Shown here: positions 30,932 through 35,286 of the stretch, piece after piece | How positions within the stretch are numbered: the stretch's first letter is position 1 | Layout: the number at the start of each line of letters is the position of its first letter | Assembly (NCBI GenBank): GCA_010093605.1 | Contig: MU004193.1 | Location: 813,520-877,519 of the forward strand | Source of the DNA: Lophium mytilinum | Lineage: Eukaryota | Length of the DNA stretch: 64,000 nucleotides | Direction of reading: 5' to 3' | Program-made: the position numbers and the translations under genes | The notes under the pieces: model-generated | Database searches by the model: none | What the model was told of the DNA's origin: nothing | The model's input: only the letters and a program-made list of their open reading frames with translations

Positions 30932-31810
30932 CTTGCTTAACGTGAGATATTTAGGGAAGATGGGCGTAGGAGAGAGAAGACAGTGGTACGCTGTCTTCGA
31001 GCAAGGCTCACATTTCGAGAGTCCAGGGCGAGTCGCGCCTTTTCAGAAAAGCGAGCTTCAGAAGTCGATCCCATCCTTCGACCAGGATATCAGGCTCGCA
31101 TACACCCCAATTGGCTTCAATAAACCAGGGTGCCGGTCAAAGACTGCATGAGGCCTATAGCAACACATCGTGGCGCTCGTGAAGCGGAGATACGAGCCGA
31201 GAAAGACCTCGGGAGACGAGGCTGAGAGTCCAGACGCCGCGAAACTTGGCGATCTGCACCCACCAAAGTGCGTTCCGGAAGGCTCTGGCGATGTTAACAT
31301 TCCGAAAACGAGACGTAGAGGTTTACGATGGAATGGTAATACACAAGGCATGGAGTGGAAATAGGCTCGTCGTCAAGACTCACGCGCTGACTCAGCAAAA
31401 GCATGAGCGACTCACACAACACGTCACACACGTAAACAATAGACAGCAACAAGAAGCCATATCATTAGCTATTCACACCTCCCTCACTTTTCAAACCAGC
31501 CAGTAACCTGGAACACCCCGCGCCAGCTATGCCCTCCAAGACGCTGAGATCAGAGGAACCATGATGCTTTACAGGCAACGTCAAGAAGAGAAAAGACCGA
31601 GCAAGAGCACCGAGGTACCGAGCCACACATATAACCAAGGGAAGGAAGGACTTATTGACACAATCTGATGGGGAATTGGGGCCGACCGGAAACAAAACTC
31701 CTAGATGCTCTCGTGACACATACAGAGTGTTTGACGACCTGAGATTATGTTAAATAGGTATCGATGGGGGTAGATAAGAGGAGACATACCATTGACGAAC
31801 GGAAGAACAT

Positions 31811-32551
31811 CTACAACCGGGATCCGTGGACGACCTTGTAGTCAACAGCCATCTCCAAGCCATCGTCGTTGATGACAAGGATGCGGACGCTGCCACGGCC
31901 GTTGTCGAAGGACTCGGCAAGGCGGGAAGAGAGGCCGCTCTGGTCAAGGACAGGAAGACCCTGCTTGACATCGCCAGTCTCGGTCATGGCGACGACGCGA
32001 CCATCCTCACGGATGTCGAGCACACGGTACTGCTTGAAGACAGGGCCGAGCATGTTCTGGACGACGACCGATGGGGCCGGGTTGGAGATGAAGCTTGACT
32101 CCTCGTGCAGCTGCTTGGTGAAGAGGTCAACACCAAGGTAGCGGTGCTGGCCAGTCTGCGACGAGGTGGTGATGCGGATCACCTGGCAAGGGCGACCCTG
32201 AAGGATCAGGAGATCGCCAATGCGGATGTGATGGCACGGGATGGTGATGGTGTTAGGGACAGCCATGTTGCGAGTAGGAGCGGGCGAGGCCGACGCGGAC
32301 GCGTAAGCAGGCTGGGGAGCGGCGTAGGAGAGAGACTCTTGGGGAATGCCGACGCTGACGCGAGAGGCAGGGGGAGCTTGAGCGGAGGTAGTGTAGGATT
32401 CCTTGACTACAACTTCCTCGCGGTCGTCGGACTGGGAAGAGTGGTGATGATGGTGCTTGGAGCCGTGGATGGGGTGTAGGACTCGGTCGGCAGCTTTGTG
32501 AAGACCGTGGCGGAACGAGTGGTATTGACCGTCTTCGTCGTAATATCCCAT
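31811..32551 (-). CDS. hex-1: Woronin body major protein HEX-1 (AUG-initiated form, 246 aa)
   Basis: MGYYDEDG, poly-His tract, TIPCHHIRIGDLLILQGRPCQVIRI...GVDLFTKQLHEESSFISNPAPSVVVQ, and a C-terminal PTS1 SRL. Confidence 0.96.
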   Translation of the reverse strand: MGYYDEDGQYHSFRHGLHKAADRVLHPIHGSKHHHHHSSQSDDREEVVVKESYTTSAQAPPASRVSVGIPQESLSYAAPQPAYASASASPAPTRNMAVPNTITIPCHHIRIGDLLILQGRPCQVIRITTSSQTGQHRYLGVDLFTKQLHEESSFISNPAPSVVVQNMLGPVFKQYRVLDIREDGRVVAMTETGDVKQGLPVLDQSGLSSRLAESFDNGRGSVRILVINDDGLEMAVDYKVVHGSRL

Positions 32552-33586
32552 ATCACGCTTGTACTTCTTAGGGGCGTCGACAGTAGCTCGAGTAGTTTGC
32601 TCTACTCGAACTTCTCCTCGTGCTTGAGAAGAGTAGCGGGAGTCGACAAGGTCGGCTTCGCGTTGACCGTAGCGAGGCTGCGAGTCTTGAGTTGCCTGGG
32701 ACGCGTAACGTTCCTGGACAAACTGGGATGGCTGATCGTAGCTGGGGCTAGACGAGATGTTCGTGTAACCGGCGACGATGGGACGGGTACGCTCACGGTA
32801 CTCGCGTTCAGTTACGTCGATCTGGGTAGGGGCGTAGTCGGTGGCAGGGCCGTGGACAGTGTTGAACTCTCTGTCGTAAGACCTGTCCTGGACGTCGAGC
32901 TGGGCTCCGACGTAACGTTGGTAGGGTTGTTGGTATCTGTTGTGAGGAAAGAAAGGTCAGCGGGAGCTTGAGGGAAAGACGGGAGGGAAAAGTGGAGCCC
33001 CGTCGCCTGGGTGACAACAAAATAAAAGAATCGGGCTAGCCGCACGGCGCTCGCCAAGAAAAAGGGGCTGATTTGCTGGCACTTACCGCTCGCGGGTCTG
33101 CTCACGGGGCTCACGGGTCTGTTGGCGGGAGAACTCGACCTCGGTGCGTTGCTGCTCTTGGGGATAGCGGCGCTGCTCCTCGTAGATGTGGACGTCCTCC
33201 TTGTATTGTTGTTGTTGCTGCTGAGGTTGCTGAGATTGCTGGGGCTGGCGAACTCGGTCCTGCTCGTACACGCGGAGCTCCTCGTGATACTGGCGGTCTG
33301 CTGGGACGGTACTCGAGAAGGATTCGATGCGAGTTTCGTGACCCTGCGCGAGTCAGTGGGCTGTCCATTGTTTTGATGGCAGTTTTGAAGGGGATGCACT
33401 CACTTCCCGTCCCGGAGCCTGAGGTAGCTTTTCTTCGGCCTCTACCTTGACGTGTGTTGTTTCTGCTGTGACAGCGTCACTCCGATACCTGCTGCTGTCA
33501 GCCTGAGCGCGCGCGGAGAGCTCTGAGTCGACGTACGCTGACGGGAAGACACTGAAGGGGATCGGGACGCGGGCGTCGAAATCCAG
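32552..33586 (-). CDS. hex-1: Putative CUG-initiated N-terminal extension of HEX-1; exons 33586-33404, 33343-33087, 32936-32552
   Basis: Two canonical introns (33403-33344, 33086-32937) join three stop-free segments in frame with the ATG at 32551. In-frame TAG at 33598-33596. No ATG in any frame of these exons. Confidence 0.7.
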
Positions 33587-35286
33587 CGTCAAGACCTAAA
33601 GGTTTCTCGCGTAGCCCCTCGAATCGTCGGGACAATTCGAAGGAAGACACGAGAAACTTCTCGGCTCCTTGGGGTGACAGTGATGTCGGGTAGGGGGGAA
33701 GAGGGTGCGAAGGAAGCCTTTAAAAAGCCAGCTTGCGGTGAAGACGGGGCTGTGATGGGGTTGGATGGGGTTGTTGGAGACGGTGAGTGCAATTGGTGAG
33801 GCGGGTGGGTTGGGGTGAGTTGTCTCTGAGCGTCGGTCGCTTCAAGTAGTGGAGGTCTGTGTTTGGGGGGGAGGCTGGGCCAACAGACGCGACCCCGGCC
33901 GATCAAAACAACGCAAGCGGCCTAGCGGGCCAGCCCCTTTCACGTGCGGGCCGAGAGCTATCTGTGCCATCAACAGCAACCTGCCCGAGCAGCCTCCCGA
34001 TTCAGAGCTGCCGTCCGACCTCTCTCCAAAATCCTCGCTGCTCTGCGGTCCTGGCTGCTCAGCGCGGCCTCAATTGCCAGACAGCCGCTCGATCTGCTGC
34101 GCGGTTGCGTGCAGCTGGCCGGGCTGCCGACGTGCGACTCGCAGTGGGTCTCACGGCCGCCCTCCTTCATCTCGTGGAGTGCCGCCATTGGCCGCTTGGG
34201 GCACTCTGGTGCAAACAAACGATAGTGGACACGCCCTCGGGGTCGGCAGCGTGCTTTTCAGCTGAGCAGCATGGAGTTTCCCAGCCTCTCTGCGGCTTCT
34301 GACGCCCCATTGGCCTGCGCGTGGGGCCGTCTTGCAGATGGCTTTCTGCATGCCAACGCCCCGGTGGCTGGTTTCCTGCCGCCGTGATCCACCTCCGAGC
34401 TCTCGCCCATGGCCATCGAGCACCGTCGAATGTGCCGCTGCGGCCATCGCCAGCTGCAGTCGAGCTTCTGCAGTCGGCCTGCGGGTTCGCTGCCCATTGA
34501 TAGCGCCGCCGAATCAGCATCGGCCTCTGCGGTTCCGTGGACGCGTCTCTCAAGTCTCCGCGCTCCAATCGCACGGCGCGTCATCCAACCACCACCACGC
34601 CGCTACGAGGCCTTGCAGCTCACTTGCAGAATGTCACCATCTGGAGCTTATCAGACTGCGGGGCAGGGAGCTTCCGTAGCTTCCGCCCTTCTGATGGCTG
34701 GGCTGGGGAAGGCTGGGACGGCCTCGATGGATGGGAGCTGTTCTCACTTTCTCACAACTCAGCGAATCAGAGCCATTGGATCTGCTCTTTTATAACTCAC
34801 CTTCTCCTGCATGTCCTTCTTCTTGAAACTCCAGCCATTTCCTTATTGCAAGCTCGCTGCCAGAGATATCTACCGTCAAAGATGAGCTCACGTGACAGGT
34901 CCGCAAAGTCCACATAGATGCTACCGACTTGCTGGCGAACATGGTCAAGGTGGCATTTCATGGTATAAACGTAGATAATCGGCTACTACACTTGTAGCGA
35001 CAGGCCTATGAACGCATCGGCACCAGTGAACCCAGCTGCTTTTGAGTTAGACGCAAGCAGGATTCACTTCTATCACGTCGTCTCTTCAGGATTGGAGGTG
35101 CTCACTAATTCAAACCCAGCAATGCTAACCAAACCTACTTCATACAAAGACTCAACGATCAAGCTACCCGACAAGTTCTCGAATCATGAATTCTTTGAGA
35201 AAAACACTCCCCAGCGTACCACACAACTCAAGTGTCTCCTAATTTCTCATAATCCTCCCACCAAATATGTCTTCCCGTCGCCAGCT

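Follow-up and report, generated by a model that had tools for sequence, protein, structure and literature searches.

HEX-1 plugs wounded fungal hyphae and is the textbook self-assembling protein of the Woronin body. In the well-known cases of FGF-2 and c-Myc, one mRNA yields an N-terminally extended minor isoform from an upstream CUG and the main isoform from the AUG. In the RNAs of the pararetroviruses rice tungro bacilliform virus (RTBV) and cauliflower mosaic virus (CaMV), a stable leader hairpin precedes a non-AUG start that is followed by a long AUG-poor stretch, and ribosome shunting requires a short AUG-initiated upstream open reading frame (uORF) before the hairpin. For a fungal peroxisome-related protein, a second isoform from a non-AUG start was reportedly described in 2020, its extension, by the title of that paper, creating peroxisomal targeting. 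The high- and low-molecular-weight isoforms of FGF-2 are covered in the available part of a further paper (PMC7795026), and the closest precedent is cpc-1 of the Pezizomycotina, for which the accessible text describes near-cognate-initiated N-terminal extensions of the product CPC1 (PMC5487733, Ivanov et al. 2017). Here we describe the hex-1 gene of Lophium mytilinum, which lies on the minus strand of a 64,000-nucleotide stretch of contig MU004193.1 (GenBank assembly GCA_010093605.1, positions 813,520 to 877,519; this whole stretch is referred to as the window). Comparative sequence evidence makes it highly probable that hex-1 encodes, on one mRNA read by leaky scanning, a CUG-started long HEX-1 in addition to the classical short form.

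The start region of the extension reads TAG-GTC-TTG-ACG-CTG-GAT on the minus strand (33598-33581), exactly as an earlier note on this DNA had reported, including the A at -3 and the G at +4 of the CTG at 33586. From this codon the frame is open, via the introns, into the hex-1 coding sequence that ends with TAG at 31813-31811 (Table 1). The exon structure was determined by aligning contigs of four public runs to positions 31500-34300, namely X1 and X2, which are guessed to be RNA and contain spliced forms, and the metatranscriptomes X5 and X6, for which stretches uncovered by contigs are no evidence either way. The two introns proposed in the earlier note (33403-33344 and 33086-32937) are real joints in the RNA contigs, found in three and two of the four runs, respectively. 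A third intron of 48 nt had been missed; it takes 16 codons out of exon 1, and the product then reads ..VFPSAYRSDAV.. as in homologues. With this intron spliced, the extension comprises 259 codons (777 nt) and the long form 505 residues, so that the proposed in-frame connection to HEX-1 stands, and the proposed lengths of 275 codons and about 521 residues do not. All three extension introns keep the reading frame, and the spliced extension is contiguous with the core coding sequence in RNA contigs of three runs, which show one abundant long hex-1 mRNA. Comparison of the window with the X2 organism gave no differences in 347 nt of leader and first coding exons (33403-33797), as against 13 substitutions and an insertion of 3 nt over the 660 nt compared of exons 2-3, so that constraint on the mRNA is strongest at its 5' end.

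In the window, ATG is absent from all frames of the extension and also from the 383 nt that precede the CTG, the nearest lying at 33970, which agrees with the earlier note. From 33797 to the main AUG the mature mRNA runs for 988 nt without an AUG; the short coding sequence has eight ATGs in 738 nt. The dozen ATGs that had been said to be expected in the extension apply at uniform composition, and the expectation falls to 8.0 by real composition, to 2.1 by a first-order Markov model and to a mean of 1.99 out-of-frame ATGs in a codon shuffle. Among relatives, 30 metagenomic contigs resembling complementary DNA (cDNA) carry an uninterrupted frame from the CTG through MGYYD, with extensions of 210-363 codons (630-1089 nt). 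None of the 30 extensions has an ATG in any frame, where codon shuffles expect 0.9-11.2 each and 95.8 in total out of frame, and the divergent contigs L001, L013, L018, L033, L060, and L075 each individually give P0 ≤ 0.004. The leaders of these contigs (4-334 nt) lack ATG in 28 of 30 cases, the ATG-bearing ones being L060, at -221, and L080, which has 1270 nt of upstream sequence and its nearest ATG at -323. Wherever the leader is long enough, as it is in 28 contigs, the frame is closed by a stop 5-55 codons upstream of the CTG. The ATG desert is suggestive in the window alone and compelling across relatives, and the lack of ATG in all frames of all 30 contigs is the hallmark of scanning that leaks through to the AUG of MGYYD. 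Conservation of the open frame and of the missing AUG, which had been suggested as a check, was thereby observed.

The start codon itself is conserved at the DNA level. Start contexts were counted among the loci, at least 112 in number, that a degenerate pattern for VPIPFSVFP retrieved from metagenome contigs, 78 of the 112 having NTG-GAY-TTY-GAN directly before the motif. Fourteen further loci were examined, and 12 of them have an intron of about 50 nt right after CTG GAT TTT GA(A/G) GCN (C/A)G(A/T). Nineteen chance matches without hex-1 marks and the truncated L082 were excluded, and L006 and L111 were not placed. With the codon left unrestricted, 65 distinct start contexts were obtained among the matches listed, 59 with CTG, every one with A-3/G+4, and 6 with ATG, all from one lineage and with C-3/G+4; the conservation of the CUG that the earlier note proposed to look for is therefore present. 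Among these same matches the leucine codon is always CTG and never TTG, CTC, CTA, CTT, or TTA, and the neighbouring codons are synonymously variable (GAC/GAT, four GCN, CGN/AGA/AAA, three GTN, and four CCN). By best tblastn hit, which gives a rough assignment, the CTG contexts resemble Dothideomycetes (38), Eurotiomycetes (8), Lecanoromycetes (6), Leotiomycetes (5), and Arthoniomycetes (2). In CTG-type contexts the -1 codon is AAT, AAA, AAC, AAG, ATC, or ACG, and CTT occurs only in five contexts of the ATG lineage. Of 14 distinct cDNA contexts, all have G-6, C-4, A-3, and G+4 around the CUG and 13 also have A-2; at the main AUG, G+4 is again present in all 14, and 13 of them have a purine at -3.

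In the extension, all 12 pairs compared have a ratio of nonsynonymous to synonymous substitution rates (dN/dS) of 0.19-0.45 and an excess of third-position changes, the ratio for the core being 0.06-0.27; this pattern indicates that the extension is under purifying selection. The same data bear on the possibility that the upstream frame is an untranslated leader, coding-like by chance or as the relic of an ancestral exon. Its lack of AUG and its low-complexity composition would fit such a leader, as would the published Hex1 work, which in the available text detects short forms only (PMC7762394). The dN/dS values and the third-position excess in every pair speak against a leader of this kind, as do the absence of stops over 210-363 codons in all 30 contigs, the three introns that are all frame-preserving and the retention of amino acid motifs across classes, and we consider an untranslated leader to be very improbable.

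At the protein level, the exon 3 part of the extension matches 43 long Hex1 gene models of 294-642 residues from Dothideomycetes. Their N termini agree from ..VPIPFSVFPS(A/S)Y on and are heterogeneous before it; some are flagged as partial, as are many hex-1 models overall, and others enter from tiny Met exons (MDK, MAH, or MDQPQLK, each directly before the joint), in keeping with the expectation of the earlier note that gene callers would mishandle the extension. A search with residues 13-72 of one model returned 249 proteins at an expectation value (E) of ≤0.01, and the 120 matches listed include genera that we take to represent Dothideomycetes, Lecanoromycetes, Eurotiomycetes, Leotiomycetes, Geoglossomycetes, Xylonomycetes, Arthoniomycetes, and Candelariomycetes. 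In 149 stored proteins, 107 have an internal Leu in [N/T/K]-LDF[D/E]A[R/K]VPIPF, 18 have the VPIPF part only, 22 are without the motif and 1 has another residue; Met at the Leu position of the motif was found in none of the 149. Ten further cluster representatives also have Leu at the start position, and seven of ten named clusters are Sordariomycetes (Colletotrichum, Seiridium, Monosporascus, Mariannaea, Berkeleyomyces, Gaeumannomyces, and Hirsutella), one Colletotrichum cluster having model lengths of 377-553 residues. Judged from these gene models, the N-terminal motif is present in five or more classes of Pezizomycotina. Before the Leu, the models predict either RHSRKDA.. or AFEKGR.., which are one conserved nucleotide element read in two frames by different models, so that this element is noncoding and is conserved as RNA or DNA sequence, not as protein. 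In Alternaria-like and some other genomes an intron of about 50 nt lies at or near the boundary of the sixth codon, immediately after it in ten loci (L002, L011, L023, L043, L045, L051, L058, L078, L096, and L112) and one or two nt before the boundary in L044 and L106. The first coding exon is then at most 18 nt long and opens with CTG, and this accounts for the Met mini-exons that deposited models have invented.

Several observations weigh against a CUG-started long form. In the window alone the ATG desert is weak, the codon shuffle giving P(0) = 0.089, and the metagenomic contigs are phylogenetically related, so that their counts overstate independence. The CUG context of the window has T-6 and G-4, departing from the conserved G-6/C-4 of relatives, although A-3/G+4 is kept, and TTG (33592) and ACG (33589) lie in frame immediately 5' of the CTG. 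Run X1 contains a contig of low depth, at about 13% of that of the main hex-1 contig, which spans window positions 33650-34236, far past the TATA-like box, and includes upstream ATGs such as that at 33970, which opens a 42-codon frame closed at about 33842. Because rare variants are lost from contigs, there may also be a minor mRNA that has an AUG exon farther upstream, or a separate, shorter mRNA that gives the short form. Finally, the available text of the Hex1 work cited above reports isoforms of only about 20-25 kDa in other fungi and regards long N termini as probable annotation errors (PMC7762394).

Two of these points correspond to other readings of the start. Translation of the extension from an AUG in a farther exon, spliced onto the TTTAG at 33600-33596, was the danger to its own proposal that the earlier note had raised; the TTTAG does precede the frame, and the lower-depth X1 RNA reaches 34236 with the ATG at 33970 in the same frame. 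No such joint was seen in the four runs, however, and contigs of X2 (33534-33797) and X5 (up to 33717) run through 33600-33596 colinear with the genome, unspliced and without ATG, so TTTAG is not an acceptor in these RNAs. The frame from the ATG at 33970 stops at about 33842, the leaders of 28 of 30 relatives (up to 334 nt) have no ATG, an in-frame stop precedes the CTG wherever the leader suffices, and the frame of the sequence 5' of the CTG is not conserved. Taken together, this leaves the upstream exon scarcely credible. The X1 RNA itself may represent a long transcript of low abundance, an antisense RNA, or an RNA unrelated to the gene. The X5 contig ends at 33717 and the depth of X1 falls upstream of about 33661; with the TTTAAA and CT tract of the earlier note found at 33724-33719 and directly following, the main transcription start probably lies just downstream of them, which is a hint only because contigs cannot prove starts. 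The second reading places initiation in Lophium mytilinum at the TTG or the ACG. All three codons are near-cognate and downstream of the TAG, the TTG with G at -3, and their adjacency in frame means that the exact start within three codons is not fixed for Lophium mytilinum. Only the CTG is conserved in relatives, the ACG is flanked by T at -3 and C at +4, and the TTG is followed by A at +4, which makes a start at either of these codons most unlikely. The CUG thus stays the preferred start of the long form, and the interpretation of the earlier note is supported, every testable part of it having held.

The six ATG-type loci (L042, L061, L072, L083, L102, and L108) form the lineage that reads MDFDGRVPIPFSVFPSSY.. 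at the orthologous position (e.g. L061:3976-3993). Position -3 of their start is C, and a conserved uORF of five codons runs across this start (ATG at -7, stop at +9..+11); both features weaken the start, as expected if most ribosomes must still pass it. The best identity in a representative search is 66-75%. The Hex1 core of this lineage ends in GASL and is 60-69% identical to all classes by local BLAST. The weakened start also bears on the possibility that the long form is real and the short form arises separately, from a shorter transcript made at an internal promoter or by proteolysis of the long form. Contigs cannot show transcript starts or minor forms, and Hex-1 cleavage is mentioned for N. 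crassa in the accessible part of one paper (PMC7559983), both of which leave room for such an origin. It would leave unexplained, however, the selection that keeps ATG out of all three frames along 630-1089 nt of every one of the 30 contigs, the invariant strong-context Met at MGYYD, and the C at -3 and overlapping uORF of the ATG lineage. We therefore regard a separate origin of the short form as improbable and retain leaky scanning on one mRNA as the preferred explanation.

Directly upstream of the CUG the leader is predicted to fold into a stem-loop. In the window, the 100 nt before the CUG form a long nested hairpin with a minimum free energy of -41.4 kcal/mol (z -5.07; 0 of 200 shuffles as stable), and 12 of 15 CTG-type leaders tested have z ≤ -3, with L021, L049, and L103 at -1.1 to -1.6. 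When a three-helix structure was imposed on a 34-sequence leader alignment, 86.8% of cells were paired, compared with 39-58% when the partners were slid. Changes on both sides of a pair were found in 45 cells versus 20.1 in shuffles (0 of 500), and the covariation score was 0.224 versus 0.173 shuffled (0 of 500). The two inner helices are paired in 89% and 94% and the outer helix in 60%. The frequent G-U pairs fit an RNA structure, not a DNA palindrome. A search of Rfam with positions 33400-33900 gave only sub-threshold chance matches and no family that fits the stem-loop. The five leaders of the ATG lineage that were tested are pyrimidine-rich and unstructured (-0.7 to -7.6 kcal/mol). The stem-loop may be a dedicated cis-element that sets or regulates the share of starts at the CUG, and hence the long to short ratio and Woronin-body assembly; such an element would be ancient and shared by all major classes of Pezizomycotina, and would represent upstream-structure-dependent near-cognate initiation, undescribed so far. 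This proposal is tentative and we would not presently bet on it. The one lineage in which AUG has replaced the CUG has also lost the structure, which fits the proposal, but as a single evolutionary event this loss makes the connection between stem-loop and CUG no more than a lead. A hairpin downstream of the start that would assist the CUG was also considered, and rejected. RNAalifold places one at +4..+41, but its 8-bp helix is without covariation and the region folds no better than shuffles. Nor was a stable structure about 14 nt 3' of the start, as in structure-assisted non-AUG initiation, found in +1..+50 of the window (z -0.33) or of L012 (z -0.50).

Taken together, the following mechanism is proposed. 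A single abundant spliced hex-1 mRNA would present about 1 kb without AUG to scanning 40S subunits, which would get past the stable leader stem-loop, and a fraction of them would start at the CUG at 33586, the codon with the best near-cognate context (A-3/G+4). Near-cognate starts insert Met, and initiation at the CUG would accordingly give a Met-started protein of 505 residues in which a largely disordered, Gln/Arg/Glu/Tyr-rich extension of 259 residues, with the conserved motif (M)DFDARVPIPFSVFPS, is fused to a complete HEX-1. The remaining subunits, meeting no AUG in any frame, would continue to the strong-context AUG at 32551 and produce the 246-residue HEX-1, and both forms would carry the C-terminal SRL peroxisomal signal. 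Near-cognate extensions are recognized by an open upstream frame closed by an in-frame stop, the lack of an in-frame AUG, a conserved codon and purifying selection, all of which are found at hex-1, and the features of leaky scanning are found as well, with no AUG between the starts, a weak first start and a strong second one (G-3/G+4). The data show the exon structure, the lack of ATG, the conservation of the CTG with its context, purifying selection on the extension and the conserved stem-loop. Ribosome initiation at the CUG, the minor share of the long form and its ratio to the short one, its function and any role in crystal or condensate assembly are inferred.

The computed masses are 57.6 kDa for the long form and 27.0 kDa for the 246-residue short form. 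The HEX-1 core of the window matches PF21485 (E 2.9e-07) and PF01287 (E 1.8e-05), both above curated cut-offs, and with its C terminus ..VVHGSRL, a type 1 peroxisomal targeting signal (PTS1), and its MGYYDEDG start it has the marks of the family, for which the available texts give S/A-R/S-L and MGYYD as consensus (PMC7559983, PMC7762394). Pfam found no domain in the extension, which is of low complexity, rich in Q (36), R (31), and E (27), and without Met, Cys, or Trp. No type 2 peroxisomal targeting pattern was seen by eye in the N-terminal motif. An AlphaFold2 model (m6795a1e686da) of L012, the closest cDNA-like relative (581 residues, 53-row alignment), shows the core as a confident beta-barrel and the extension with a predicted local distance difference test (pLDDT) score below 50 nearly throughout, except for a short helix at residues 159-168 (pLDDT about 72) over the conserved QIDVTER..RERT. 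This helix corresponds to ..TQIDVTEREYRERTRPI.. in the extension of the window and is nearly invariant across classes. The segment TQIDVTEREYRERTRPI is a candidate binding motif. A disordered arm of 30 kDa cannot fit inside the HEX-1 lattice, and the long form is therefore expected on the crystal surface; our guess is that it acts as a surface or capping subunit, or as a tether or envelope binder, on the Woronin-body core. The variable region after MGYYD in the short form contains a His run (..HGSKHHHHHSS.., window about 32440-32460, minus strand). In the accessible text on A. fumigatus, a polyhistidine motif after MGYYD is described as needed for septal targeting of HexA (PMC7762394).

Table 1. 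Features of the hex-1 locus in the window
Feature	Positions	Strand	Evidence
TTTAAA (TATA-like) box; CT-rich tract (33718-33688) directly after	33719..33724	-	Sequence
Extended stem-loop in the 5' leader, base 3 nt 5' of the CUG	33590..33671	-	Folding and covariation
In-frame TAG, closing the frame 4 codons 5' of the CUG	33596..33598	-	Sequence
CUG, proposed start of the long isoform, A at -3, G at +4	33584..33586	-	Sequence and conservation in relatives
Exon 1a, coding part, 50 nt, with LDFDARVPIPFSVFPS motif	33537..33586	-	RNA contigs; motif conserved in 107 gene models
Intron, 48 nt, in frame, GTACGT...GCTGAC...CAG	33489..33536	-	Joint 33485/33534 (cut +3) in X1, X2, X5 (3/4 runs)
Exon 1b, 85 nt	33404..33488	-	RNA contigs
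Intron, 60 nt	33344..33403	-	Joint 33342/33403 in X1, X2, X5 (3/4 runs)
Exon 2, 257 nt, Gln/Arg/Glu-rich part of the extension	33087..33343	-	Sequence and RNA contigs
Intron, 150 nt	32937..33086	-	Joint 32936/33087 in X1, X2 (2/4 runs)
Exon 3, extension part, 385 nt, ends ..KKYKRD	32552..32936	-	Sequence
Main AUG (MGYYDEDG), G at -3, G at +4, start of the classical 246-residue HEX-1	32549..32551	-	Sequence
Short-form HEX-1 coding sequence and stop; eIF5A-like N and OB domains, C-terminal SRL	31811..32551	-	Pfam and sequence
Intron in the 3' untranslated region, 51 nt, GTATGT..CAG, begins 21 nt past the stop codon	31739..31789	-	Joint 31736/31788 in 4/4 runs

All functional work on HEX-1 rests on the short form. 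If the long form is made, a product twice the size would be a new component in the biogenesis, tethering or size control of Woronin bodies, and the scattered lengths of deposited Hex1 proteins would be explained; in the available text of one survey, 51% of 460 GenBank Hex1 entries have 405-534 residues, noted as "length variation" (PMC7559983). An annotation rule would also follow, namely that hex-1 models start at the conserved CTG. A search of the full-text literature, with subscription papers and supplements outside its scope, returned no report that links Hex1, HexA or the Woronin body to a non-AUG, CUG or near-cognate start, to a long isoform or to the motif strings. The CUG-started long HEX-1 is very probably real, deeply conserved, and apparently unpublished.

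Compared with the known systems, hex-1 combines features that are otherwise found apart. Like the RTBV and CaMV RNAs it has a hairpin directly 5' of a non-AUG start and an AUG-free stretch, but AUG is missing from the leader of the window and from 28 of the 30 cDNA-like leaders, and the defining feature of a shunt of that type is therefore absent. The extensions of FGF-2 and c-Myc are short, whereas that of hex-1 exceeds the core protein in length and is part of an AUG desert of about 1 kb. In contrast to the peroxisomal case of 2020, HEX-1 already carries a C-terminal PTS1. The Hex1 splice isoforms described in the available text for V. dahliae (188 versus 209 residues) stem from an intron near MGYYDD and differ by about 20 residues downstream of the AUG (PMC7762394). 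They involve the same gene and likewise a difference on the N-terminal side; here, 259 residues are added upstream of the AUG. The start codon of hex-1 is invariant, one lineage offers ATG as its natural replacement, and an AUG desert follows, which places the gene among the cleanest comparative cases of a near-cognate start; together with its leader stem-loop, hex-1 is a tractable model in which to study how filamentous fungi select start sites. In cpc-1, initiation is shown in extracts and by profiling, according to the accessible text (PMC5487733), and in hex-1 it is predicted from the sequence. The same text gives cpc-1 several candidate near-cognate codons that are partly conserved (CUG in 73 of 100 species) and AUG uORFs in the leader (PMC5487733), whereas hex-1 has one invariant CUG, about 1 kb of AUG-free leader and extension, and a stem-loop that abuts the start.

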